From a virus, in the IMG/VR virus record IMGVR_UViG_3300045999_011383: a DNA stretch of 64,000 bases; one strand, given 5' to 3'. A program made the position numbers and the translations under genes. Below the pieces are notes generated by a model, which saw nothing but the letters and a program-made list of their open reading frames with translations, was not told the origin of the DNA and did not search any database. Below are positions 21,830 through 42,676 of the stretch, in pieces; the first letter of the stretch is position 1; each line of letters opens with the position of its first letter.

Positions 21830-22852
21830 CTAGGAAACCTTGATTTCAGCGATCGCTTCTTCTAAATGTTCCTGAATCACTAATCCCTCTCGCTCTAAAA
21901 TCGCTCGTTTAGCTGCATCTTGGGCAACCCTCACAGCTTGAGCCGCAGAAAAATCTTTCATCTGTTCAATAATTCTTGGCCAGTTGATAGATCCCACTTC
22001 AATTGCAGATAGTGTTTCCCTCAGTATAAATTCTAGTTCTTTTTCTCCCGGTTTGGGTACTGCAATCAGATCATCAAATCTCCTCCATAGGGCAGTATCC
22101 AAAGATTTATTCAAATTCGTAGCGGCTACCATAAGCCCAGAAGAAGGTTGATATTCATCCAAAATTTGCAAAAATGTATTTACTACTCGCTTAATTTCTC
22201 CCACTTCCTGAGAATCTTCTCGTGTCTTAGCAATTGAGTCACATTCATCTAAAAATAATAAACATGGATTTTTTGCAGCATCCTCAAATACCAGTCTTAA
22301 ATTACTGGCTGTCTCCCCTAAAAAAGACGACACCATTGCATCAAAACGTACTTTTAACAGTGGTAAACCTGTATTCCAGGCTAAACGTTCTGCTCCTAAT
22401 GTCTTTCCACACCCAGGCGGTCCATAAAGGAGAATTTTTTGCCGATAACGCAGCCCATGATGAGCTAGTCTATCTCTTGCTGCATACTCGCGCTCAATTC
22501 TTTGAAAACGCTTTTCAATTTTTTCAGGCAATACCATGTAATGACGTAGTTTATCCCTTGGTATGGTCGTTACCAAGGGAAGGTTAAAACGCTTACTGGT
22601 TGGTAATTCGCTTAAACCCTGTAAGTTTTCTCCTGTTGTTTGTGTGGCATTTGCAAGAAAGGAAACAGGTTTGATAGGGTCGGGAGATTGATCTCTGGGT
22701 TTCTTTTTAGCAATATTCTCTAACTGGTCAGCAAGGAGGGTATGCCCTTTACTGCGCTCTTCTTCTATGACCAGATATGCAAGTTTGTCAATCGCTTCTT
22801 GGTCTGAACTAGCGATCGCTCTGAAAAACCTTTTGAGAATCTCTCCCTTCAT
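21830..22852 (-). CDS. classical AAA+ ATPase
   Basis: Walker A LLYGPPGCGKT, Walker B LLFLDECDS, and second region of homology ATNLNKSLDTALWRRFD. Confidence 0.85.
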   Translation of the reverse strand: MKGEILKRFFRAIASSDQEAIDKLAYLVIEEERSKGHTLLADQLENIAKKKPRDQSPDPIKPVSFLANATQTTGENLQGLSELPTSKRFNLPLVTTIPRDKLRHYMVLPEKIEKRFQRIEREYAARDRLAHHGLRYRQKILLYGPPGCGKTLGAERLAWNTGLPLLKVRFDAMVSSFLGETASNLRLVFEDAAKNPCLLFLDECDSIAKTREDSQEVGEIKRVVNTFLQILDEYQPSSGLMVAATNLNKSLDTALWRRFDDLIAVPKPGEKELEFILRETLSAIEVGSINWPRIIEQMKDFSAAQAVRVAQDAAKRAILEREGLVIQEHLEEAIAEIKVS

Positions 22853-22951
22853 ATTGCCTCTCTCTGCAAAAATAGAAGTTTCTTATGTATGTAGTACAAT
22901 TATACTCTATAACTCAGTGGATGACAAATTGTATCATGATCTTGCCTTGCA

Positions 22952-22965
22952 TTGCAACTGGGCTT
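22952..22965. repeat. inverted partial CRISPR repeat (14-nt perfect anti-repeat)
   Basis: ttgcaactgggctt is the exact reverse complement of repeat positions 23-36 (aagcccagttgcaa). Confidence 0.7.
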
Positions 22966-22968
22966 TGA

Positions 22969-23034
22969 CTTGCAATTAACCCAGTCCCTCAAGGTCGGCT
23001 TCTTGCAATTAACCCAGTTCCCCAAGTCCGGTTT
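22969..23034. repeat. two tandem spacerless degenerate CRISPR-repeat-like 33-mers
   Basis: cttgcaattaacccagtccctcaaggtcggctt followed by cttgcaattaacccagttccccaagtccggttt. Each aligns to the 37-nt repeat at roughly 24 of 33 positions and they abut repeat 1. Confidence 0.6.
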
Positions 23035-24171
23035 GCTTCAACTATCCTCAGTCCCTAAGCCCAGTTGCAAGTGTCAAGGGGTTTATTTTCGAAACCCTTA
23101 TATTTCCTACGTCGTTTCAACTATCCTCAGTCCCTAAGCCCAGTTGCAAGTGAAGGACGTGATTCTAATGCAGCAAAGAACATCTGTTTCAACTATCCTC
23201 AGTCCCTAAGCCCAGTTGCAAGACACATTCTTTATCTTTTAAATATAGCTTATACCATCTGTAGTTTCAACTATCCTCAGTCCCTAAGCCCAGTTGCAAG
23301 AACACCTTACCACCTTTAAGGTAAGACGGCACTTTAGGTTTCAACTATCCTCAGTCCCTAAGCCCAGTTGCAAGACAGAATTGAGAGAACTTTCAAGCCA
23401 TAAGAGAGTAGCGTTTCAACTATCCTCAGTCCCTAAGCCCAGTTGCAAGATTTTCAAAAATTTAAAAATGAATCTGGACATGAAGATGTTTCAACTATCC
23501 TCAGTCCCTAAGCCCAGTTGCAAGAATGCACATTAACAAAAAAAAACCATGAAAAACCGTTTCAACTATCCTCAGTCCCTAAGCCCAGTTGCAAGAAAAC
23601 TTATCAGATACTTAATAAGGCTATAGGTTAGTTTCAACTATCCTCAGTCCCTAAGCCCAGTTGCAAGCTCCCATTTATACAGCTTACTAGCAGCGCAAAT
23701 AGTTTCAACTATCCTCAGTCCCTAAGCCCAGTTGCAAGTCAAAAATCAACAGGAATTGGCCACTACTATTGAAGGATGTTTCAACTATCCTCAGTCCCTA
23801 AGCCCAGTTGCAAGATAAAGCCGTCCGGGGAGGCATGACTAATGAGGATGGTTTCAACTATCCTCAGTCCCTAAGCCCAGTTGCAAGTTGAGACAGTTAA
23901 ACCCAAGGTACTTTAACCTAGTTTCAACTATCCTCAGTCCCTAAGCCCAGTTGCAAGAAAGTATTAAAGAAATGCTCAAACTACCGGCATGTTTCAACTA
24001 TCCTCAGTCCCTAAGCCCAGTTGCAAGTTGCTACATTTACCATACTTATGGAAACTGTCAATGTTTCAACTATCCTCAGTCCCTAAGCCCAGTTGCAAGT
24101 TACTTTGTAAGACGTTATGTAAGACGGCGATGGAGTTTCAACTATCCTCAGTCCCTAAGCCCAGTTGCAAG
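23035..24171. CRISPR. CRISPR array: 16 x 37-nt repeats, 15 spacers (33-42 nt); transcription direction unresolved
   Basis: Repeat is GTTTCAACTATCCTCAGTCCCTAAGCCCAGTTGCAAG. Starts are 23035 (one mismatch, GCTTCAAC), 23114, 23186, 23264, 23338, 23413, 23488, 23559, 23631, 23702, 23778, 23851, 23921, 23991, 24063 and 24135. All spacers are unique. Confidence 0.97.
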
Positions 24172-24514
24172 TCCCGGCTTTCAAAAGCTTTATAAGTCAA
24201 GGGTTTCAAAGGCAATTCTGGCGGACCTGCTAAAAAATCTCATTTCAGCCGCTTAAATCAGCTTGGGTCTTTAAAAGAAACTGAGCGAAACTCTTGCAAT
24301 GTCATGGTTCTGGACTTTTGGCGAATGTCCAGGGTTTTTACCCTAGCTTTGATATGCCAAAAAGATGAGATAGTTGCCAGCCATAGTTCCGGCTGGTCTT
24401 TGGGGGTTGTCGCCTTCCCCCTTACTTTTTAGGGTAAAACCCTTACAAGTCATAAGCTAACATTACATTAGCTACCCGTCCAAACTGCGGTAATTTAATA
24501 TTAACCTAGTCCTA
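24172..24514. ncRNA. ORF-free, hairpin-dense spacer between cas12-like stop and array (candidate tracrRNA/scaffold or leader)
   Basis: Stem-loops at 24312-24330, 24331-24344, 24377-24396, 24402-24421 (GGGGG/CCCCC followed by ttacttttt), 24431-24443 and 24455-24474. Confidence 0.3.
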
Positions 24515-26389
24515 TTACTTTGTCAAGCGTTTTTTCTTAAATCTTTTAGGCTTTTGATAAACCAGCCTAACATTATGGTATTTGACCTCTCCCAATTCAA
24601 AACCACCATTCTGTTTATGATTTCTAGCAGCATTGGTATCAGCTTGTTGGGCAACGTCAAATAATTTACAGTCAGGGTTTTTACAGACAAATTCATACTG
24701 CGATCGCCTTTCCCCTTTCTGTCCGCAACAATGGCATATTTGAGAGCTATAATTAGCAGGTGGTTCATGGAAGTTGCCACCTCTATTTTCTATTTTTTGC
24801 TTGGTTTTAGCTTTCAAGTCACCTAAACATCTTTGTCTCATAATCCAGTTTAAACCACGTTTAGCAGATGCACCATTGTGAGCATATCCCACACCCTCTG
24901 GTAATGCTTTTGGATCTACTTGTTTAAGTAAGTTGGTAACTTGTGTATCCTCCCAAGATATATGTTCATAAGTGCGAGATAATCTTGTGGATAACTTGTG
25001 ATTAAAGGCATTAGAGGAATTAGCCCCGCGTTCGTGTAGACGGCTGATTTTTTGTTGTAACTTAGATTCATTCTTTGTCTTGATTCTAGAGGTCTTGTTG
25101 CCTAAGCTTTTCCATTTTTTATCATTAATTAATTCAGCGTTGTCTAGACGTGATTGTAATTCCTCAATGTGAATTGAGATCCGCTCCCTAGTAAGGTTAG
25201 GAAGGAATAAAGCCCCATGATCTGTAGACACTACAGCCTGTACCCCAGGGTCAATACCCGCACTCAGATTTTTACCTTTTAAAACTGATGACTGCTTAAT
25301 TTGTTGCTCAATGAATTTCAGTTTTGACTTGATATCTTGGTACTCTTCACTGTCTTCACCAAACTCTTTTTTTACCTTGGGTAACTTATTTGTTAGTACA
25401 GACTTTTCCTCTTGCAATGGGTGAGCAACTACAATATTAATGTAGTATCCTGACTGCTGTTTGGTAATCATGTATGTCCGTGGCAAAACCTGAGAAAGAT
25501 TCAATCTTTTTACCCAGTTTTTGTCAGCAATAGTGATGGGAGTAAGTCCGGTGACAGTAACTATGTTTTTGTCAATGTCAATCCTGTTAGGCGCACATTG
25601 ATTATTAGATAAAGTTGCAATCTTGTCTACATCTTTTTTGAATTTTGGCTTTCTACTGTTTATCCTTTTAGGATCTAAAAATGCCTTCCAAGATTCCTTA
25701 AAAAATGCTAACAGCCCGCCAATATAGTGGGAAGAAACCTGCAAGTCTGGTAAATTTTGGAATGCTCTTAAAGTATTTAATCCAGTCACGTTGTCAAGTT
25801 TTTCCAAAGTAGTCAGTTCCCTACCCTCATACTTTCCACTAGGGAATGTGCGGTATTTGTGAGGGACTATTTCTATCCGTTGCCAGGGCTTATCGCCTTT
25901 AACTAATTTGTACCCCTTGACGTAAATAACGCCTTTTTTGGTATTAACTGGAATATTGATATTTTCATCTCTCTTCCAATAATTCCCGCCTGTGGCTATT
26001 TGACAGGATAATCCTTCATAAGCACTATTTCCAAGCCTTAATGGCACAGGAATAATGCCTTCCAAGCTAAATGGACTCCATCTGGTAAATATCTCAAATT
26101 CTTTCTTGCTAACTAATTCCTGTTCTTTTTTAGACAGCTTAGGCTTATCCTTGGTGGAATAGTAATCTTTAACTAATTGTTGTTGCTCAGGTTTAAGTTT
26201 TTCCAGTTTTTCAGTAGCCTTGGTTAAATCTGCACTGCGTTTAGCAGCCCAAGCATACCAATCTACGCAGTGATTGTGTAGTTGGTTGGAAAGTGCTAAA
26301 TTCCACAGCCATGTTAATTCATCTAAGTAGCGATCGCACACAGCCGCCTGTTCTGATGAGAGTTTGATTTTAATCTTAATTGTCTTCAT
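24515..26389 (-). CDS. cas12: TnpB-like type V CRISPR effector (Cas12 family), RuvC residues intact
   Basis: 624 aa. TnpB-like N-terminus IKIKLSSEQAAVCDRYLDELTWLWNLALSN. RuvC-I GIDPGVQAVVSTDHG, RuvC-II HISWEDTQVTNL, zinc finger CHCCG..x13..CKNPDC, RuvC-III QADTNAARN. Adjacent to the array. Confidence 0.85.
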   Translation of the reverse strand: MKTIKIKIKLSSEQAAVCDRYLDELTWLWNLALSNQLHNHCVDWYAWAAKRSADLTKATEKLEKLKPEQQQLVKDYYSTKDKPKLSKKEQELVSKKEFEIFTRWSPFSLEGIIPVPLRLGNSAYEGLSCQIATGGNYWKRDENINIPVNTKKGVIYVKGYKLVKGDKPWQRIEIVPHKYRTFPSGKYEGRELTTLEKLDNVTGLNTLRAFQNLPDLQVSSHYIGGLLAFFKESWKAFLDPKRINSRKPKFKKDVDKIATLSNNQCAPNRIDIDKNIVTVTGLTPITIADKNWVKRLNLSQVLPRTYMITKQQSGYYINIVVAHPLQEEKSVLTNKLPKVKKEFGEDSEEYQDIKSKLKFIEQQIKQSSVLKGKNLSAGIDPGVQAVVSTDHGALFLPNLTRERISIHIEELQSRLDNAELINDKKWKSLGNKTSRIKTKNESKLQQKISRLHERGANSSNAFNHKLSTRLSRTYEHISWEDTQVTNLLKQVDPKALPEGVGYAHNGASAKRGLNWIMRQRCLGDLKAKTKQKIENRGGNFHEPPANYSSQICHCCGQKGERRSQYEFVCKNPDCKLFDVAQQADTNAARNHKQNGGFELGEVKYHNVRLVYQKPKRFKKKRLTK

Positions 26390-28207: not shown

Positions 28208-28413
28208 ACCCGACATATCTAAGCTTTTAAGTAGATAGCCCAACGGGAAATACTGCTTTCTTGTTCTGATAAACCCACCAAAAAACAAAGTCCTTTAATT
28301 AAAGAAGCGATCGCGCTTATTCAAAAAGGATTGTCAATTTTAATAGAATTAATTTAGTTTTTAAAGCGCTCTTGACAGGGCGTTTTTTGTTGTTTAAAAA
28401 CTTAATTTAATTG

Positions 28414-28443
28414 TTGATTAATTGTTAATCAATGTGTTATACT
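28414..28443 (+). promoter_or_regulatory. candidate promoter of the csf operon (TTGATT-18-TGtTATACT, extended -10)
   Basis: ttgattaattgttaatcaatgtgttatact, 38 nt upstream of the GTG at 28481. Confidence 0.4.
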
Positions 28444-28480
28444 AAATCAAGATTAAATTACTTTAGTTTGGGAAAGTAAA

Positions 28481-28999
28481 GTGACAACCAATCATTACGG
28501 AATGCCACAGACACGAGACAAGTGTTATGGCGTGGCTGCTTGTTTAAGTTATTGGGTTTTTAAATGCCGTGACAGGAAACGTAGTCCAGCCATGGGAACT
28601 AAAACCTGGACATATTTGGAATCTTCTATCAAGAATTGTGCAGAAATATCCACAAATTTAGAAGATTATCTACAAAATCTTTGTGATAAATTGATATCGC
28701 AATTAAGACCTGTAGAGCTAACCAAAATTATTCAACCAACTCAGAGAATACTGAGAATTAATGAAGATGCAACTGAAATCAAGGAACTACCAATAGATCG
28801 AAGTTTGGTTTTTATGGGGTGGCTTGACTTGCTTGCCGATATTGAACCCCACGGATTTAGTGAGTGGGACGTAATGGAATTGTTAAGAACAAAAACAGGA
28901 GTTATTCAAGTAATTTGTCGTCTGCGATTTGAAGAAGATAGAAGTGTGGGGCTTGATGAACCAGAAGAATTTATTGAGGTAGAGGTGACAAATGTTTGA
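28481..28999 (+). CDS. first gene of csf operon; possible Cas11-like small subunit (assignment by position and size only)
   Basis: 172 aa, GTG start. Its stop overlaps the csf2 ATG. No diagnostic motif. Confidence 0.4.
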   Translation: MTTNHYGMPQTRDKCYGVAACLSYWVFKCRDRKRSPAMGTKTWTYLESSIKNCAEISTNLEDYLQNLCDKLISQLRPVELTKIIQPTQRILRINEDATEIKELPIDRSLVFMGWLDLLADIEPHGFSEWDVMELLRTKTGVIQVICRLRFEEDRSVGLDEPEEFIEVEVTNV

Positions 29000-30125
29000 T
29001 AATTATAATATTTTTGACAGAGAGAAATTAACCCTGCATTGCTTAATCACGCTACAGACACCATTGAGCCATATAGGCGAAGTGTCTGGCAATGTTAGCA
29101 ATCTGAAAACTACTAAGTTATTGGACTTTGAAGGTAATCCTAGAAGTGTTTTTGTCTATTCTGGTAATGCAATCAGAAACGGTATTTTGCGCCGGGTAGG
29201 AGTGGCAGCAGCACTCACGGAATTAGGAATTAAGGTAAATCCAGATACTCACCATACAATGTTTGCTGGCGGGCGAATTGATGGGGGGACAGCTTCGGAT
29301 ATGGAACTGGATAAAAAGATCCGGGTCTTTATGCCTTGGCTATCAGTATTGGGAACAGCCAAACCCATAGGTGTTTTTGGGACTAAAGAAGCCCAGATGG
29401 TAGCTGGTAGAAGTAATATTGGCAGTGGTTATTTAGTCTGCTATGAGTCAGCAGAATACGTTTACAACCAACTCCCAGCAGTTTTACCACCGGAAATACA
29501 GCCAACTATGGCCTTATTAATTGAAGCTAAAACCAGACTTTCTTCCGACCCTTTTGTATCCACAAAATCAGAAGACTTAACTAACTGGAATCAAGCAAAA
29601 TCAGAATGTTTGCCACTGATCAAAAAAGCAATGAAAACATGGACTGAATACTTAACAATTGATCAGACAACTCGCAGAGATAGCACTTTAGATCCCAACT
29701 TACTCAAATTTCTACCATCAGAAGTACAAGCACAATTAACAGGTGATGGTAAAACTAAAGAAAAAACTAAATCAGATCAGATGATTGCGTCTGACAGGCT
29801 GATCATGCCCGGTGCTAAACTTTATTCTCGATGGGATCTAACTTGTACTCAAATAGAAGAGGGATGGATATTTGATACTTTACTCAAGTTTTCAGAATCA
29901 CCTTATATTGGTGGTAAAGGCAATCGTGGCAATGGCAGGGTTCATCTTGATTTCTGGTTTCAGTCTGACCATGAACGGGGGTTATTGTGTTCTCTGAAAG
30001 ATGGAATTATGGGAGATAGGTTTCTTAATTCCCATCAAAAATATCGGGAATATATCAATCAGTATCAGCAGTTTTTAAGTGAAGCAAAAACATCCAAGGA
30101 ATTAAGGAAGTTGTTAGGTGAATAA
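28992..30125 (+). CDS. csf2: Csf2-like Cas7-family RAMP (type IV backbone subunit)
   Basis: LITLQTPLSHIGEVSG....VFVYSGNAIRNGILRR is the RAMP N-terminal motif. Also MFAGGRIDGG and WLSVLGTA, with C-terminal G-rich loop YIGGKGNRGNGRVHLDF. Confidence 0.75.
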   Translation: MFDNYNIFDREKLTLHCLITLQTPLSHIGEVSGNVSNLKTTKLLDFEGNPRSVFVYSGNAIRNGILRRVGVAAALTELGIKVNPDTHHTMFAGGRIDGGTASDMELDKKIRVFMPWLSVLGTAKPIGVFGTKEAQMVAGRSNIGSGYLVCYESAEYVYNQLPAVLPPEIQPTMALLIEAKTRLSSDPFVSTKSEDLTNWNQAKSECLPLIKKAMKTWTEYLTIDQTTRRDSTLDPNLLKFLPSEVQAQLTGDGKTKEKTKSDQMIASDRLIMPGAKLYSRWDLTCTQIEEGWIFDTLLKFSESPYIGGKGNRGNGRVHLDFWFQSDHERGLLCSLKDGIMGDRFLNSHQKYREYINQYQQFLSEAKTSKELRKLLGE

Positions 30126-30804
30126 TTTAAAAGTCACTGCATATTTGTCTACACCGATTGGTGTCTATGACAATTGGAGTCCTTCTTTGGAGGGACTTCT
30201 TACCTATAGATTACTAGAAGAAAATAATCTATTGTCTCCCAATCCCACCGCAGAGCAAGTAGCAAAGGTTCAGAATTTTTTAGTAAATGAATTACCGCTT
30301 AAACAGAATACAATAATGAATGATAAGTATTTCTGTGTAAGTTCACCTTGCTATGTGGTTCAAGGTGAGGCTACTGATAAATATCGGAAAAGATGGGACA
30401 ATCACGAAAATAATCTGAACTGGGGAAAAAGAAAGCCTAAATTCTTGACGGGTGAAGGTGCAGAAAAGTCCTATGATTTACCGCTATACACTCGTTTAAC
30501 AAATAGTATTAGTTGGTTTGTAACAGGCGACAGAACCAAGATTGACGCTCTATTGTCACCTGTTACCCATATTCAGAAAAAACGAAGTTATGGCAATGGT
30601 GAAGTTAAGCAATGGCAACTAGAAATAGTTTATGACGACTATCATTTGTGGCGAGATAATAAACTAATGCGTCCTATGCCCGTGAAGTTAATATCACAAA
30701 AAATAGATAATCCTCAAATGATTTGGGGATGGAAAAGCCCGTCTTGGTTAGCAGAAAATAAAGAACTTTGTTATATGCCAAAGGACAATGTGATTTATGC
30801 TTAG
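30118..30804 (+). CDS. csf3: Csf3-like Cas5-family RAMP
   Basis: KVTAYLSTPIGVYDNWSPSLEGLLTY at the N-terminus and G-rich loop KKRSYGNGEVKQW. GTG start overlaps the csf2 stop. Confidence 0.6.
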   Translation: MNNLKVTAYLSTPIGVYDNWSPSLEGLLTYRLLEENNLLSPNPTAEQVAKVQNFLVNELPLKQNTIMNDKYFCVSSPCYVVQGEATDKYRKRWDNHENNLNWGKRKPKFLTGEGAEKSYDLPLYTRLTNSISWFVTGDRTKIDALLSPVTHIQKKRSYGNGEVKQWQLEIVYDDYHLWRDNKLMRPMPVKLISQKIDNPQMIWGWKSPSWLAENKELCYMPKDNVIYA

Positions 30805-31543
30805 TAATGGCTCTGGGGTTCAATACCCTTGGTTGAAAAAGAAAATTACTAAAGCTATTAATTTCATTAATCAGTGGCTAGAACAATGCAACTATCAGGT
30901 TTATGCAAGTATTTCCGGTGGTAAAGATAGCTTAGTAATGTCTCATTTGATCAGGAAAGTTTACCCTGATTGCCCGTTAGTTTGGGTAAATCAAGGGCTG
31001 TTAGCAGAATGGGATGATTGTATTGAATTATTGGAATACTTGAAAACTCAAAACTGGAACATTATTGAGCTTTGTCCAGTTCGTGATTTATGGCATTTAT
31101 ACATAGATCACGGAGTTCCGTTAGAGGGTACGATGGATACAAAAGTAGATAAATTAATCAACCAAAAATTGATTTATGATCCATTGCAAGAATACCAAGA
31201 AATCAACAATATCAAAGGGTACGCATGGGGAATAAGGAAGCAAGAAAGCAAAAACAGAGCATTTTATCTTAACAAGTACGGTGAAGTTCATGAACTAAAA
31301 AATGGGTTAATTTGTTGCTCGCCTATTGCTCACTGGACTACAGAAGAAATATGGCAGTACATAGATATGTACTCACTCAAATACCCAGCAATTTATGACA
31401 TTAACAAAATGACAGTCAGGAATGGTTGCCCGATTGGAACTACAGGAGCAAACTGGGGTAGATTAGCTGAATTAAAAAGATATTACCCCAATATTTACAA
31501 CCAATTTGTTGATAAATTCCCACAAATATCGAACTATGTCTAA
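30797..31543 (+). CDS. cysH: PAPS-reductase / CysH-like PP-loop enzyme
   Basis: PP-loop ASISGGKDSLVM, then WGIRKQESKNR and PIAHWTTEEIWQYI. Embedded inside the csf operon with overlapping junctions. Confidence 0.85.
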   Translation: MLSNGSGVQYPWLKKKITKAINFINQWLEQCNYQVYASISGGKDSLVMSHLIRKVYPDCPLVWVNQGLLAEWDDCIELLEYLKTQNWNIIELCPVRDLWHLYIDHGVPLEGTMDTKVDKLINQKLIYDPLQEYQEINNIKGYAWGIRKQESKNRAFYLNKYGEVHELKNGLICCSPIAHWTTEEIWQYIDMYSLKYPAIYDINKMTVRNGCPIGTTGANWGRLAELKRYYPNIYNQFVDKFPQISNYV

Positions 31544-32294
31544 TTGCTACCTTTGCGCTAAACCAGCATCAAATCCACTAGAATTATCCAATACTTTCAC
31601 CATGCACTCATCGGCTAAGTGTCCAGACTCTAAGCTGCTGTGCGATCGCTGCTATTCTACAATTTCTGGTAATCAAAAGCAGTTATGGTATTGGAATGAA
31701 GGTAAAAATAAGTGGTCAAAACTGTGGGGACGATCTTTGTCCAGGGTGTACCAAGGCGATACTTTAATAGCACCAATAATTAAAGGCACTCACACTGAAG
31801 GCAAAGATACTTTCAGTGTGGTTAGAAACTTATTGACGCGGGTAGAAATCAGGGAATATTTATTAAATCCTCCTGAGCCACCGTTCACTATCGCTATAGC
31901 AGAATCAGGACAAAAACACATTATCCCATGGGCATTAGAAGCGCGTAGCTGTAACTTTTTTCCAATTCAATTTGAGTTAGACACGGTTTATATTGACAAC
32001 AGATTCAAGGAATCTTTGCAAGTATATGAACAACTAATGGGATTAGGGTTTAGTAAGTCTGAAATTGATTCAGGAAACTACAGAAGCGATAGATTGATGA
32101 AAGTGTTTGATAAATTTTGGGAACTTGAGGAATCCATAAAAGCCATTAGAGGGACTAGATTAATGGAATTAATAAATTACGTCGCTCAACTACAATCAAG
32201 TGCCGTCGTGGCGGAAATAAAGCCAATTCCTGTAATTCCTGTTTCTCCCACGAGTCCAGACAAATCAAATCCAGTTCAGTTATCGTTGTTTTAG
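31536..32294 (+). CDS. csf1: Csf1-like zinc-finger large-subunit protein
   Basis: Tracked ORF trimmed to the ATG at 31536 (ATGTCTAA overlap with the cysH-like stop). N-terminal CYLC..x21..C..x6..CDRC cysteine cluster; about 250 aa. Confidence 0.55.
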   Translation: MSNCYLCAKPASNPLELSNTFTMHSSAKCPDSKLLCDRCYSTISGNQKQLWYWNEGKNKWSKLWGRSLSRVYQGDTLIAPIIKGTHTEGKDTFSVVRNLLTRVEIREYLLNPPEPPFTIAIAESGQKHIIPWALEARSCNFFPIQFELDTVYIDNRFKESLQVYEQLMGLGFSKSEIDSGNYRSDRLMKVFDKFWELEESIKAIRGTRLMELINYVAQLQSSAVVAEIKPIPVIPVSPTSPDKSNPVQLSLF

Positions 32295-32310
32295 CAAAAA
32301 CCCTTATAAT

Positions 32311-32402
32311 TCCGATCCGTTAAAAATAACGCTGGAGTCTTTAAAATCAACGCTGGAGTCAGCAAAGATAACGCTGGAGTCCTTAAAATTAACATTGGAG
32401 TC
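32311..32402. repeat. iteron cluster: 4 x AACGCTGGAGTC-type 12-mers at exact 21-bp spacing
   Basis: Cores at 32328, 32349, 32370 and 32391 (the last reads aacattggagtc). The 29-nt lead-in tccgatccgttaaaaataacgctggagtc matches 50459-50487 at 27 of 29 positions. Confidence 0.75.
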
Positions 32403-32558
32403 GTTAATTTTAAGGTTTCATCTATATTATTAAACAATCTTAATTAACAATCTTAATTAAGAGTCTCTAGTTTAAGTACAAATAAAAATGCTCACCAAGG
32501 TGCATGGTGAGCATAATATGTTGAAACCTACTCAATGCAAGTATAGCAAATTTAACCC

Positions 32559-33548
32559 TTAAATTGCATTTTTAATAGCCTGACAAATTCGTTGCATAAG
32601 CAATGGGGGAATGGAATTTCCAATTCCCCTAACATCAACCGCAGACTTACCCGACCATTTATAAGAATCAGGAAAAGATTGTATTCGTGCTAACGCATGG
32701 GTGCTTAAACTCTTGCAAGTATCACCACAGACAATATCAATTATTTTAGAGCGATTGCCATTGTGTCCATCGTCACCTAACACTGCACGAATAGTCCAAC
32801 ATGGTTCTAATGGTGTTTTGACCTTGGGTTTGCCACGGTATCCAATTCGTTCTACTAGTACCATTGAGTCGCCATAGGGTGCTACAGCGTCCTTCTGTCG
32901 GGGTGTTATCTGTGATTCAGTGAAGTGGGGAATCAGATCACAAATCGCTTCATGCCACCCAATCCAGTTTTTCCTAAATAGATTAATTTGCCCATTAATT
33001 GCTTTTCCATACTCAGGAATAATGCAAGGAAAGTCAAACCCATCAGATACGGCAATACTTAAAAACCGTTTTCGGGATTGAGGTACACCGTAATCAGCAG
33101 CATTGTAAATACCTTTGCCAATCCGATATCCTTTGTCTATTAAAAATGCTTCAAAGTCCAGATAAACCTTTGATTTAGAATAACCGGGGACGTTTTCTAA
33201 AACTATAAATTCAGGTTCATATAAGCTGTAAAATTCATGGGTTGCACTCAATATATTAGCACGAACGCTATCTTTATTGGTAGCCACATTAACCACTGAA
33301 AAGTCTTGACAAGGTGGTGAAGTTTGGTGAACTAAAATATCGCCATTCCGGTCTTTTTTGGTGGGAATATTTAAATTCCTGAAGTTAACTTTGGCAATAT
33401 CTTCTATTAATACATCCCCACAATTAGTTTGATAAAGTTCTGCTATTCTAGGATCAAACTCAATAGCAGATATTGGTTTTAATAAAGCAGACATTGCACC
33501 TATAGTTGAGCCACCGCATCCTGAAAAATGAGTAGAGTAATAAATCAT
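32559..33548 (-). CDS. dcm: DNA cytosine-5 methyltransferase
   Basis: Motif I FSGCGG, IV SPPCQDFS, VI LENVPG, VIII QSRKRF and X GNSIPP, in canonical order. Confidence 0.9.
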   Translation of the reverse strand: MIYYSTHFSGCGGSTIGAMSALLKPISAIEFDPRIAELYQTNCGDVLIEDIAKVNFRNLNIPTKKDRNGDILVHQTSPPCQDFSVVNVATNKDSVRANILSATHEFYSLYEPEFIVLENVPGYSKSKVYLDFEAFLIDKGYRIGKGIYNAADYGVPQSRKRFLSIAVSDGFDFPCIIPEYGKAINGQINLFRKNWIGWHEAICDLIPHFTESQITPRQKDAVAPYGDSMVLVERIGYRGKPKVKTPLEPCWTIRAVLGDDGHNGNRSKIIDIVCGDTCKSLSTHALARIQSFPDSYKWSGKSAVDVRGIGNSIPPLLMQRICQAIKNAI

Positions 33549-33808
33549 TTATGTTTCACCTGTATTGCACCTTGAATTATCAAAAATCTCCAATCAATAT
33601 TGTCCCTAATTCTGTTAGAATTACGCTTACACATAAACCAACTTTGAGATAATGTTCCACGCCAAAATATTGTATCTAAAATCATAACAAAATACTCTAT
33701 GCCCAGAAGTTTTAAATAAAACCCACCGGGCTTTAAGTTAACCACAAAGATGGTTTGTCCACCTTTTTCTATTACAAAACCTATGTCTTTAGTTCTTTGA
33801 ATTTTCAT
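33545..33808 (-). CDS. hypothetical protein (87 aa)
   Basis: Stop overlaps the dcm start. Confidence 0.4.
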   Translation of the reverse strand: MKIQRTKDIGFVIEKGGQTIFVVNLKPGGFYLKLLGIEYFVMILDTIFWRGTLSQSWFMCKRNSNRIRDNIDWRFLIIQGAIQVKHK

Positions 33809-33829
33809 GTTTTTAGATCAATAAGTAAG

Positions 33830-34075
33830 CTATAAAACATCATAACAAAATAAATTCCACATCCAAGTTTTGCCATTTTTAACAATTTCTTGGGGTCTAT
33901 CAATTACTGTATCAAAATTTCTGCCACGACAGTTTTTATTGCTTCTCCAGGTTTGCACCATTCTTTGTTCCGAACATTCTCTATCCAAGGATTTCATGCG
34001 TCCCCAGCAGCCATCAGCATCCTTAAAATAGCTACCACAAATACCAAACATTCGCCCATTTTTTAATGTTATCAT
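33830..34075 (-). CDS. hypothetical Cys/Trp-rich protein (81 aa)
   Basis: Co-oriented ORF. Confidence 0.4.
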   Translation of the reverse strand: MITLKNGRMFGICGSYFKDADGCWGRMKSLDRECSEQRMVQTWRSNKNCRGRNFDTVIDRPQEIVKNGKTWMWNLFCYDVL

Positions 34076-34176
34076 TTTGCCACTGTACTACTATTGTTAA
34101 AAACAACAAAACCGCTAGGTGAGCGGTAATGTTGCGGCAGTTCTACGACGACCCCTAGACTGTGTCTATTTAGATT

Positions 34177-35340
34177 TTAGCACATACTTAGTTGGGTTTC
34201 ATTGTTTGCAAGTGAAGCGCAAATATCGTACATCTCAGCCCATACGTAATCATCTTTTGCAATTGACGACAAAGGCTGTCCTGCGTATTTTGCTTGCATA
34301 GATATTTGAAAATATCTAGTTAACATTTTTTTGATCAAACTTATCTTGGTTTTCTCGCTTACTTGCAATCTGTAGTCCCCTGTTTCAGTTTTTTCTACAA
34401 AAACTCTAAAACCAGAAATTATCGGGAAAACCAAAGATTGCTGAGTTATCACACAGGTAAGTATTTCATGGTTAGGCAACTTGGTATATTTCCTAGCGTC
34501 GTTTCCACTTTTTGTAAACCTTGTTCCTGTAGCACTAGAATGATGCTGTTCTTCTAGCCTTTTGAATATTTTAGACTGAATATCTATAGCGTCGTGAACT
34601 AACGAAAAAAGTTTTTTTGGTACTAAGTCTCGACGTATAGAATTAGCGGCGTGTATTGAAAGCTTTGGATGCTTCTTTTTGCTGGTATTGGACGGAGAAT
34701 AACTTGGATCTAGTGCCAAAATAAGACTGCAAATCCTGGCAATTGTACAGCACCCATCAACATTTGTTGTCTGCACTCCAAATTGTCCTTCGTGATAAAT
34801 AATTCTGTACTTTTCAAGCTGCGGCTTCATCCAGTCATAGTCACCGCTATAATTTGCTAAACTCATTTTTGAGACGGCTTTACTGGTATTTAATGCGATC
34901 GCCTTTTCTTTTAATTCAATTTCATCAAAACCTGAATAGATTATGATGTTTACAAAAACTTGAGAAATATCTATCTCTTTAAAATTAGCAGCCACGCAAA
35001 AAGCTAATAGCCGATGACCACCATCTAACAATCCATCGGAATCTTTAAACGTCAATCTAATCAAACTTGCAGTAATTTTTGAGCAATCAGCAGCAAGATG
35101 AAGTGGTGAACTAATAACCGAAACACCCTTTTTTAAGGACTCAATTATTGACTCGGTAACAGAGTTTTTTGTCGGTCTTCTTACGTTGGCAGTTAGCGGG
35201 ATTTTCCATAAAAGATGAGATTCGCTTTTACCGTTAGCTTCAACTAAATCCTTAAGAGTAGTTGATACATGATACTCTTTTCCCTGTTGAACTGGAAATT
35301 CATTTAACGACCGGATGTTTAAACTAATAGCGTGTGCCAT
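34177..35340 (-). CDS. DGQHR/DndB-like (ParB-Srx fold) protein, variant motif DGGHR (tentative)
   Basis: GLLDGGHRLLAF followed by ..ALNTSKAV resembles the DGQHR-domain core. Confidence 0.35.
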   Translation of the reverse strand: MAHAISLNIRSLNEFPVQQGKEYHVSTTLKDLVEANGKSESHLLWKIPLTANVRRPTKNSVTESIIESLKKGVSVISSPLHLAADCSKITASLIRLTFKDSDGLLDGGHRLLAFCVAANFKEIDISQVFVNIIIYSGFDEIELKEKAIALNTSKAVSKMSLANYSGDYDWMKPQLEKYRIIYHEGQFGVQTTNVDGCCTIARICSLILALDPSYSPSNTSKKKHPKLSIHAANSIRRDLVPKKLFSLVHDAIDIQSKIFKRLEEQHHSSATGTRFTKSGNDARKYTKLPNHEILTCVITQQSLVFPIISGFRVFVEKTETGDYRLQVSEKTKISLIKKMLTRYFQISMQAKYAGQPLSSIAKDDYVWAEMYDICASLANNETQLSMC

Positions 35341-35494
35341 AATTGGATGGTGGTTTAATTGATTTCACATCAATAAAATATTTTATTGATGTGAATTTAC
35401 TTATAATAATATCATAAATTAATTTATTTGTTAAAAAAATAAACGGTTTTTAAAATACCCACTAATACGCTTTAGTGGGTACAAAAGATTCAAG

Positions 35495-36121
35495 CTAAAT
35501 CTTTTTCAGTGCATCCCAAGGGTCAATCCCGCATTCCATATAGGTCGTTAATCGAGTTTGACAACGTTCTAATTTGTTTAACGTCTCAAAGTCCGTAAAG
35601 TCTCGCTGACCGTTCTCTAATCCAATTTTAGCTTGCATGAAGGAAACAAATCGGGCATATTCCCAAGGTTCTTTAAATCCGTATTGTTGAAGCTGATTAG
35701 TCAATGGGCGGAAATCATGCCTGGTGTTGAATCTTGCAGTCAACCAACGCTGTCTTTCTTCTGCTTCATGCTTGACCCCAAAGGCATCGCAAAACAACTG
35801 ATAAAGCGACTGGTTCACCAATATCCGGGTCATGATCTGGGCTTTCTGATTCCCTTTAAAAGCCAACTCAGCAATCAAGTTTCCAAATACTTCTAGTGGA
35901 ATAGCATTTATACCTTTAGGGTTAAGTGATGTCTTGAGTTTGGCGAACTGGAAACTCTTGTCTAGTAAGCTTTTGATGTCTCTTGATGCTTGGTTTTTGT
36001 CGAACTGAAAACAGCTACTTAATTGAGGAACACCTACGTAATATTCCCCACTTTCGGACATTAATCCTTCAAGAGAAAGATTTTTGCCAAACTTGACTTC
36101 TGTTATAATTGCAGTTATCAT
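35495..36121 (-). CDS. hypothetical protein (208 aa)
   Basis: Shares an upstream promoter motif with the KilA-type genes. Confidence 0.5.
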   Translation of the reverse strand: MITAIITEVKFGKNLSLEGLMSESGEYYVGVPQLSSCFQFDKNQASRDIKSLLDKSFQFAKLKTSLNPKGINAIPLEVFGNLIAELAFKGNQKAQIMTRILVNQSLYQLFCDAFGVKHEAEERQRWLTARFNTRHDFRPLTNQLQQYGFKEPWEYARFVSFMQAKIGLENGQRDFTDFETLNKLERCQTRLTTYMECGIDPWDALKKI

Positions 36122-36255
36122 GGTGATATATCTTGATATGAAATACCATAAGCAGCGCTGAAACTTTGCTTATGGTATTTTAATTATAACACTTAATCGC
36201 AAATATAACTACAGTTGTTGATATAATAAAAGAATATTTTTATTAAGTACAGGGC

Positions 36256-37110
36256 ATGATTAATCAAGTAATTCATGGTGATTGTTTTGAAGTTTTGAAA
36301 ACTATTCCTGATGGTTCTATTGACGCTGTAATCACAGATCCGCCTTACATGACAACTGATTTAAACTTTGATAAAACAGGCTTTGATGTTGACTTATTCT
36401 TAAAATTATTATTACCAAAACTTAAAAGTGATGGACAATTAGCTGCATTTGGGAGTATTGAATTACTTGCTAAGTTTAGCGGTATTTATCCTATTAGATG
36501 GTCAGGAATGTGGTTAAAACCGAGAGGAGTGATGAGAACTCATACAGCCAAGAAACCTATGAGCAAAAGCGAACCTTACTGTATATTTGCTCACCCAAAA
36601 CATAAAGTATCAAACCTTGTTTATAACAAAATATTATTGCCAGGAGAGCCTTATGAAAAAAAACAAAAAAATACTGGCTATATTAGAGACGGCAAAAATC
36701 AAATAGATAGAGCAAATACTTCTGCATGGACTAAGGACGGGTATATCTCAAAAAACCTGGGTACAAGACAACAAACAGATGTTATTGAATCTCCGTTCAA
36801 AGGCTGCATGAAACATCATGAACGAACCATTCACCCCACACAAAAGCCTGTAGCACTGATATCTACATTGGTTCAGTGGATAACCAACCCCGGCGATACA
36901 GTCCTTGACCCTTTTGCTGGTAGTGGTACAACAGCACTAGCCTGTAAAGAACTCAACAGAAACTATATCTGCATTGAGAAGGAACGGGAATATATTGACA
37001 TTATTCATCAACGCCTAAACACACCCATAGCTGAAAGGGGATTAACTGTAGAGGAACAGGTAGAGATTGAGAAAACTAAGTCACCTTATCAACAGTTGTC
37101 ATTGTTTTAG
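36256..37110 (+). CDS. DNA N6-adenine/N4-cytosine methyltransferase (DPPY, beta class)
   Basis: Motif IV AVITDPPYMTT at the N-terminus and motif I LDPFAGSGTT near the C-terminus. Confidence 0.85.
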   Translation: MINQVIHGDCFEVLKTIPDGSIDAVITDPPYMTTDLNFDKTGFDVDLFLKLLLPKLKSDGQLAAFGSIELLAKFSGIYPIRWSGMWLKPRGVMRTHTAKKPMSKSEPYCIFAHPKHKVSNLVYNKILLPGEPYEKKQKNTGYIRDGKNQIDRANTSAWTKDGYISKNLGTRQQTDVIESPFKGCMKHHERTIHPTQKPVALISTLVQWITNPGDTVLDPFAGSGTTALACKELNRNYICIEKEREYIDIIHQRLNTPIAERGLTVEEQVEIEKTKSPYQQLSLF

Positions 37111-42587: not shown

Positions 42588-42676
42588 AAAGTTCCACATA
42601 ATTTAATTACTAGCAAATAAGCCAGTTCCTAGCTGGTTTATGACACAGAAATCAGCTAAAAAATGGATAGACAACC

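Follow-up and report, generated by a model that had tools for sequence, protein, structure and literature searches.

The left end of a CRISPR array, at positions 22952-23071 of a 64,000-nt stretch of cyanophage DNA from the IMG/VR record IMGVR_UViG_3300045999_011383 (hereafter the window, to whose positions coordinates refer unless another genome is named), is probably a recombination scar at the trailer of a Cas12p array and not a guide-RNA element. This end consists of a 14-nt segment inverted relative to the array repeat (the 14-mer), two abutting 33-nt units without a spacer between them (units B and A), and the first repeat of the array, which carries a substitution. This reading is supported by the strand on which the array is read, the identity of the two units with repeats of a different CRISPR type, the alignment of the locus with that of a sister phage, signs of recurrent exchange in related phages, and the lack of conservation of the 14-mer.

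The orientation of the array can be taken from its effector. The 624-aa product of the neighboring gene matches the Cas12p structure 9jfs_A in the PDB (phmmer, E=0, 1268 bits, residues 1-615), with partial matches to TnpB and C2c8 as well, and by this similarity the gene at 24515-26389(-) is a Cas12p orthologue. Cas12p has been reported to use a GTN protospacer adjacent motif (PAM) (Wang et al., bioRxiv 10.1101/2025.01.20.633832; PDB 9jfs, 9jg3). In its CRISPR RNA (crRNA) the 3′ end of the repeat (...AAAC) abuts the guide and pairs with G7-U10 of the trans-activating CRISPR RNA (tracrRNA) in an AAAC:UUUG pseudoknot, and the solved single-guide RNA keeps only the last 10 nt of the repeat (10.1101/2025.01.20.633832). 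Because the Cas12p crRNA repeat ends in AAAC ahead of the guide, and this end is found on the minus strand of the repeat only (CTTGCAACTGGGCTTAGGGACTGAGGATAGTTGAAAC), the array is read on the minus strand, and its left end is therefore the trailer. A candidate tracrRNA lies on the same strand between cas12p and the array, with GUUU exactly at positions 7-10 and with a promoter-like site whose -10 element ends 7 nt ahead of the predicted 5′ end at 24491. Relatives were drawn from 11 IMG/VR and 8 metagenome loci with Cas12p relatives, the metagenome loci contributing duplicates plus one new array type (L025) and nothing more. The tracrRNA is kept in 8 related loci, with 25 consensus pairs, 7 of which show compensatory changes, and its anti-repeat, which follows GGCUGGCA, varies along with the 3′ end of the repeat from locus to locus (CAACUAUC, CAGCCUUC, CAAUCCUCAG). 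In the window, pairing to the spacer-proximal end of the repeat is supplied by CAACUAUC and GUUU within this RNA. Six promoter-like sites occur in 22700-24700, and each of them is on the minus strand. When the L025 array is read in the minus-type orientation, two of its three protospacers have a 5′ GTG; the sole protospacer found for the window, that of spacer 14, is flanked by GCA. With an adjacent Cas12p gene, a tracrRNA carrying GUUU at 7-10 and repeats ending in AAAC, the array belongs to type V-P, and strand, tracrRNA, leader end and trailer end are fixed for this phage Cas12p locus. The locus resembles the published Cas12p, or ‘Cas12 hacker’, V-P system in its orthologous effector, its phage origin, its 37-nt repeat and a tracrRNA that lies between gene and array and pairs its GUUU with the AAAC end of the repeat. 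It differs in having an array tail made hybrid by V-U2 repeats; in its main text, the Cas12p paper is silent on array ends, on neighboring or replaced V-U2 arrays, and on spacers against rival effectors (10.1101/2025.01.20.633832).

The two spacerless units are real, as an earlier note on this sequence had described, and are 85% alike. The same note took them for decayed copies of the array repeat, a description that holds only loosely: each shares 24/33 positions with that repeat, whereas variants of a second repeat family (fam2) match unit A at 33/33 and unit B at 30/33. Unit A is identical to the repeats at 31357 and 31720 of the sister phage G001 and agrees at 32/33 with every fam2 repeat of locus L001, while unit B agrees at 30/33 with the major repeat of G001 and with R5, the terminal repeat of L030. 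That the two repeat families are themselves about 70% alike (26 identical positions) explains why the units resembled decayed copies. The sense sequence of the fam2 repeat is GGTGAAACCGGACTTGGGGAACTGAGTTAATTGCAAG. In L001 a fam2 array of 28 repeats lies directly 3′ of a gene that scores 487.6 bits on the NCBIfam model for C2c8 (type V-U2), NF038192 (cut-off 350 bits), and in G001 a fam2 array of 19 repeats directly follows c2c8. L001, L002 and L020 each have such a fam2 array, of up to 28 repeats, placed tail to tail behind the Cas12p array. Their identity to arrays that follow C2c8 genes thus assigns units A and B to the type V-U2 (C2c8) repeat family. A functional V-U2 context is absent from the window, where the units abut without a spacer and the only TnpB-like gene near the array is cas12p. 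Precisely the initial four bases of the V-U2 repeat (GGTG or GGCG) are missing from each unit. A host origin of the units was considered and is unsupported, as V-U2 repeats of this family were found in phage contigs only and in none of 185,579 cellular species genomes; a third match to the family, at 42610, was dismissed as chance. The V-U2 loci of G001, L001 and L030 share the layout of the type V-U2 locus of cyanophage vB_AphaS-CL131, a minimal phage locus in which a TnpB-like effector gene is followed by an array of 36-37-nt repeats, with no cas1 or cas2 (PMC6293099). The likeness is one of layout; for the array region of the window the GenBank phage records gave no match. The window differs from CL131 in having just two spacerless V-U2 repeats, with no c2c8 gene found near the array.

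Alignment with G001, a 100-kb phage with terminal repeats and the nearest of the genomes compared, places these units at the edge of a replaced segment. Window 26948-26367 is 96% identical to G001 28332-28915, and window 22922-17888 is 98.1% identical to G001 31967-37000; between the two flanks there is no alignment. The gap is filled in G001 by c2c8 (28893-30656) and the V-U2 array, which ends at 31966, and in the window by cas12p, its tracrRNA, the Cas12p array, the two V-U2 units and 46 further bases. Homology stops 8 nt into the effector open reading frame (ATGAAGAC), and the two effectors, Cas12p and C2c8, are about 30% identical. The alignments show that the locus has undergone an exchange of gene-plus-array cassettes, with the units as the apparent surviving tail of the displaced V-U2 array. 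Similar remnants elsewhere indicate that such exchange recurs among these phages: a solitary Cas12p-type repeat persists in the V-U2 phage G006 (92% over 38 nt), L003 has a decayed, reversed V-U2 repeat behind its Cas12p array, L001 has the tail-to-tail arrays described above, and L036 has an unrelated region upstream of the ATPase gene that borders the locus.

From these comparisons a course of events can be proposed. Sibling cyanophages hold at this locus one of two distantly related type V cassettes that share a start codon, either c2c8 with a V-U2 array, as in G001, or cas12p with its tracrRNA and Cas12p array, as in the window. In the lineage of the window, the Cas12p cassette would have displaced c2c8 together with almost the entire V-U2 array. 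The tail of the old array would have persisted as two V-U2 repeats, now abutting and each without its initial four bases, ahead of a trailer of V-U2 type. The 14-mer would lie in that trailer, its TTGCAA half being the palindrome of the V-U2 trailer motif, and the adjoining 8 nt would have been copied in inverted orientation from a nearby Cas12p repeat, for example by a palindrome-primed template switch. We infer both this template-switch origin and the lack of a dedicated function for the 14-mer; an origin as a former spacer taken from some Cas12p array is less likely.

Table 1. Features of the Cas12p locus and its trailer in the window, in order along the minus strand.
Feature	Positions	Strand	Basis or remark
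cas12p (type V-P, ‘Cas12 hacker’) effector gene, 624 aa	24515..26389	(-)	phmmer vs PDB
Promoter-like site of tracrRNA, TTGACA-17-TAATAT	24498..24526	(-)	10/12 matches
tracrRNA, ACCGCAGUUUGG...GGCUGGCAACUAUCUCAU (end also given as GGCUGGCAACUAUC), U-run directly downstream	24365..24491	(-)	GUUU at 7-10; conservation
Leader, first repeat to tracrRNA	24172..24364	(-)	aligns and is conserved among Cas12p loci
Cas12p CRISPR array, sixteen 37-nt repeats (sense CTTGCAACTGGGCTTAGGGACTGAGGATAGTTGAAAC) with 15 spacers, 33-42 nt each	23035..24171	(-)	
Spacer 14	23151..23185	(-)	match to c2c8 of V-U2-bearing siblings
Terminal (oldest) repeat = repeat 1	23035..23071	(-)	ends AAGC, not AAAC
Unit A, V-U2 (fam2) repeat without first 4 nt, sense AAACCGGACTTGGGGAACTGGGTTAATTGCAAG	23002..23034	(-)	
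Unit B, V-U2 (fam2) repeat, CCGACC variant, without first 4 nt	22969..23001	(-)	
Trailer piece of 46 nt, window-specific, from unit B to the flank shared with G001	22923..22968	(-)	G001 homology resumes at 22922
14-mer (‘anti-repeat’), inverted copy of sense-repeat positions 2-15	22952..22965	(.)	
Two overlapping promoter-like sites 5′ of the AAA+ ATPase gene: TTGTCA-17-TATAAT (11/12) and TTGCAA-18-TACAAT with TG (9/12)	22899..22957	(-)	
AAA+ ATPase (IteA-like) gene, beginning of the flank shared with G001	21830..22852	(-)	

The 14-mer itself, TTGCAACTGGGCTT, is indeed the exact reverse complement of plus-strand repeat positions 23-36, and the earlier note was right that this is unlikely to be a chance match: with up to one mismatch the segment occurs 17 times in the window (the 14-mer itself and once for each of the 16 repeats), against 0.03 in shuffled sequences. 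Six of its 14 bases, however, form the palindrome TTGCAA, which is part of the V-U2 trailer motif; by a hand count, about 17/20 positions agree between the window (CAGTTGCAATGCAAGGCAAGA) and the motif that follows the V-U2 repeats of L030 (AATTGCAAGGCAAGGCAAGA). As TTGCAA is palindromic and belongs to the trailer motif, the non-trivial inverted part comes down to only about 8 nt (AAGCCCAG). The same TTGCAA serves as the -35 element of the upstream ATPase promoter-like site. No inverted match to the repeat of at least 8 nt was found in the trailers of L001, L002 and L003, and when 12 array ends were scored against shuffles the window alone stood out, the 11 others lacking a comparable inverted match in the trailer. 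The repeat of L001 diverges in exactly the part that the 14-mer would pair with (CTAAGACT), and a matching partner is absent there. Exact searches of IMG/VR with the 14-mer and its flank, with the trailer piece and with the ATPase promoter junction returned nothing or G001 only. Two motifs in the leader of L003, AAGCCCAG and GCCCAGTT, were tried as extra anti-repeats and rejected, since L001 shares them though its repeat differs there.

These results bear directly on the first of two readings offered in the earlier note, in which transcription of the array runs on the plus strand and the leader encodes the 14-mer as a tracrRNA-like anti-repeat in the manner of V-K systems. The perfect 14-nt complementarity to every repeat speaks for it. 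The note had named conservation of the 14-mer, or its co-variation with the repeat in homologous loci, as the observation on which this idea would depend, and neither was found. The published crRNA polarity with its AAAC:UUUG pseudoknot points the other way, the conserved and co-varying tracrRNA sits on the minus strand, 22700-24700 holds no plus-strand promoter-like site, and the PAM-consistent protospacers, two of the three of the L025 array, occur in the minus orientation only, so that this reading is almost certainly wrong. Like the anti-repeats of V-K (Cas12k) and other tracr-dependent type V systems, the 14-mer is short, close to the array and complementary to the repeat. Genuine anti-repeats, however, pair with the spacer-proximal end of the repeat, lie within a structured, conserved RNA and co-vary with the repeat, none of which is seen for the 14-mer, and the locus has such an RNA already in its tracrRNA: on the sense strand it pairs with the spacer-distal 5′ part (positions 2-15), which is the wrong end. 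Neither the 14-mer nor the left end as a whole should be annotated as a tracrRNA or guide element.

The second reading of the earlier note, a minus-strand trailer that folds back on the last repeats, fared better. Its strand, its assignment of the end and a predicted helix with the last repeat all stand; what does not stand is the decay of the array's own repeats, the units being remnants of another array family. Extended into a functional proposal, the 14-mer would pair, within the precursor crRNA, over 14 bp with the terminal repeat's 5′ half, and over about 20 bp once the end of spacer 15 is included. Such a structure might perhaps protect the RNA against exonucleases, offer RNase III a site to part the array RNA from the ATPase mRNA, or limit the use of the extra terminal repeat. 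We give both the fold-back itself and these roles a small but tangible chance. In the predicted fold of the trailer RNA, in the minimum free energy structure as well as the centroid, an interrupted helix of 20 bp is closed by the 14-mer region on one side and, on the other, by the last bases of spacer 15 together with the terminal repeat's 5′ half (-55.7 kcal/mol, z = -2.8; equally good in 1/200 shuffles), and the duplex of 14-mer and repeat is predicted at -24.5 kcal/mol. In addition, no intrinsic terminator is predicted from the array to the ATPase promoter, an analogous hairpin between an anti-repeat and the terminal repeat is predicted in G001, and the window's sole repeat substitution affects the AAAC pseudoknot motif of the last repeat. 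Hairpins that control an extra repeat have been documented in types II-A, II-C and VI (PMC13187072), but these published precedents concern leader-side repeats. Moreover, none of the 11 other array ends has the fold-back, not even those of the closest Cas12p loci; the 12 nt at the 3′ end of the repeat, which pair with the tracrRNA, would stay free, so that an extraneous crRNA is not obviously blocked; and the nearer units are alternative partners for the 14-mer (9 bp, -16 kcal/mol).

The substitution in repeat 1, which the earlier note had correctly singled out as the only one among the 16 repeats, belongs to the same question. In the sense orientation this repeat ends in AAGC where the others end in AAAC. 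The affected base is crRNA position -2 in the AAAC:UUUG pseudoknot, and the A-to-G change still permits a G-U wobble there. The oldest repeat alone is thus altered, at a position of the pseudoknot motif, and this fits the known tendency of the oldest repeat to drift. Mutated terminal repeats and hairpins are known to suppress extraneous crRNAs (Liao et al. 2019, PMC6610086; Migur et al. 2026, PMC13187072). As in those systems, the repeat-guide order of the window places the array's extra repeat at the distal end, that repeat alone is substituted, in an important motif, and flanking sequence can pair with it. Unlike in those systems, the change is a single, wobble-tolerant A-to-G, the predicted helix falls on the dispensable 5′ half of the repeat, and the arrangement is not conserved in relatives.

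Several observations weigh against a plain recombination scar. Even with the palindrome discounted, an inverted match of 8 nt is unlikely to arise by chance at a fixed position, and the predicted 20-bp interrupted helix with the last repeat (z = -2.8) counts against it as well. Both units lack exactly the four bases that would supply a GTG PAM, a regularity that a plain scar does not predict. Starting from an L001-like or G001-like ancestor, neither one in-register crossover, nor one crossover at a GAAAC microhomology, nor one inversion between 14-bp arms yields the present order. Finally, the window and G001 each carry an anti-repeat that matches their own array, which hints at selection or at a shared mechanism.

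The anti-repeat of G001 is located in its last spacer (31896-31966; 13897-13967 in L028), whose opening stretch is an inverted match, at 17/19 positions, to the first 19 nt of the repeat of the same array. A strong hairpin is predicted between this spacer and the terminal repeat. A search of IMG/VR for a donor array of this spacer found G001 itself only. The spacer raises another possibility for the 14-mer, namely that it is the relic of a V-U2 spacer acquired from the antisense strand of a Cas12p array, starting right after the GTC of the reversed repeat. The segment begins directly after a V-U2 repeat, in the position of a spacer. The G001 spacer, a normal 36 nt between normal repeats, is the reverse complement of the start of a V-U2 repeat plus 17 nt, and it too begins after the homologous GTC of the reversed V-U2 repeat, the homologous start points agreeing within 3 nt. 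The window segment, however, matches at only 15/18 positions, with 1 of the first 3 agreeing, the piece measures 46 nt and lacks a terminal repeat behind it, and no donor array was found in IMG/VR, so that we regard this origin as quite improbable.

A further alternative gives the V-U2 remnants themselves a purpose, as weapons against rival phages: either the terminal repeat and unit A would guide Cas12p to the V-U2 repeats of co-infecting sibling phages, or the units would act as RNA decoys for C2c8. The sequence would allow such a terminal-repeat guide RNA, which, if made, would consist of GAUAGUUGAAGC joined to AAACCGGACUUGGGGAACUG. The first 20 nt of unit A (AAACCGGACTTGGGGAACTG) match 27/28 V-U2 repeats of L001, each time after GGTG and hence with the published GTN PAM, and the G001 repeat at 31720 matches unit A at 33/33 with a GTG PAM, while the copies in the window are preceded by AGC and AAG and would not be self-targets. 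Most G001 repeats, however, offer GCG and two mismatches. Spacer 14 hits the c2c8 gene of each of four V-U2 phages at a conserved site (G001 34/35, L001 33/35, and the L030 and L032 records at 94% and 97%), but these protospacers are flanked by GCA and not by GTN. A spacer of L025 (8503-8535) is identical at 33/33 to cas12p of L006 (9445-9477), with a GTG PAM, and effector-against-effector targeting therefore occurs in this phage group. That V-U2 repeats of this family were found in phage contigs only likewise counts in its favor. On the other side, the terminal repeat is altered in the pseudoknot motif, with no better than a G-U wobble left; the units are missing 4 nt from the start of the repeat, and no separate promoter is predicted for them; and recombination alone can explain the junction, the swap being recent (98% identical flanks). 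On balance we consider such a role unlikely.

It is tempting to carry this idea further and to see the Cas12p cassette as armed against the V-U2 allele, with cutting of a co-infecting rival's locus followed by repair from the nearly identical flanks, which would turn the V-U2 allele into the Cas12p allele, so that the cassette would spread as an RNA-guided, homing-like allele drive. Besides a regular spacer (spacer 14) against c2c8, a hard-wired guide would match every V-U2 repeat of rival arrays next to a GTG PAM that the phage's own copies lack, and the hybrid tail would be at once the footprint of the event and the right homology arm. Both the drive and this view of the tail are speculative, and we hold them to be improbable. 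As for the RNA-decoy variant, phages reportedly carry solitary repeat units that act as RNA anti-CRISPRs, said to have been described by Camara-Wilpert et al. in Nature in 2023. The window resembles such phages in having spacerless repeats of a CRISPR type that it does not itself encode; it differs in that the matching systems reside in sibling phages and not in the host, and in that its units are 4 nt short and have no predicted promoter of their own.

With a recombination scar as the preferred reading, the wider meaning of the locus lies in the exchange itself. Two miniature CRISPR systems, of types V-P and V-U2, behave as alternative alleles of a single cyanophage locus that are swapped as gene-plus-array cassettes; the exchange junctions carry array repeats and solitary repeats, and spacers are aimed at rival effector genes. 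If true, a terminal-repeat guide against rival arrays would represent a new mode of conflict between phage-borne CRISPR systems.

Solitary repeats of both the Cas12p and the V-U2 type also occur at junctions of gene modules in L034 (G006 25146-25182 and about 25560-25620), L030 and L032; the solitary V-U2 repeats are followed by the motif AATTGCAAGGCAAGGCA(A/G)GAG and lie just 5′ of gene starts. Perhaps these solitary repeats mark recombination sites for cassette exchange. In G001, the c2c8 open reading frame runs into the first repeat of its array, so that its last 8 codons and stop are formed by the repeat, with no intergenic space, a layout reminiscent of TnpB and its omega-RNA. Two further spacers of the L025 array have matches among the relatives, the second in L004, with GTG, and the third in L006 and L004, with ATA. 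The window's own cas12p contains a 17/21 look-alike of spacer 14 at 25147-25167.

In the window as a whole, Rfam at gathering thresholds reported no family and a tRNA scan found none; in the GenBank phage collection, searched in near and distant mode, the array region was unmatched. The tracrRNAs of L008 and L009 contain a near-full-length anti-repeat ending in TTGCAAT (aligned against window 24365-24380), whereas a 19-nt deletion in those of the window, L001 and L003 leaves just CAACUAUC. A second module of tracrRNA, leader and array, in inverted orientation and with a diverged repeat, lies upstream of cas12p at L004 1-1033 and L006 3786-4564. Beside cas12p, the window also carries a type IV-B csf/cysH operon (28397-32094) that is absent from G001, where the sequence corresponding to window 28397 joins directly to that of 32094; the operon stands next to cas12p in L001, L003, L006, L008 and L009 as well.

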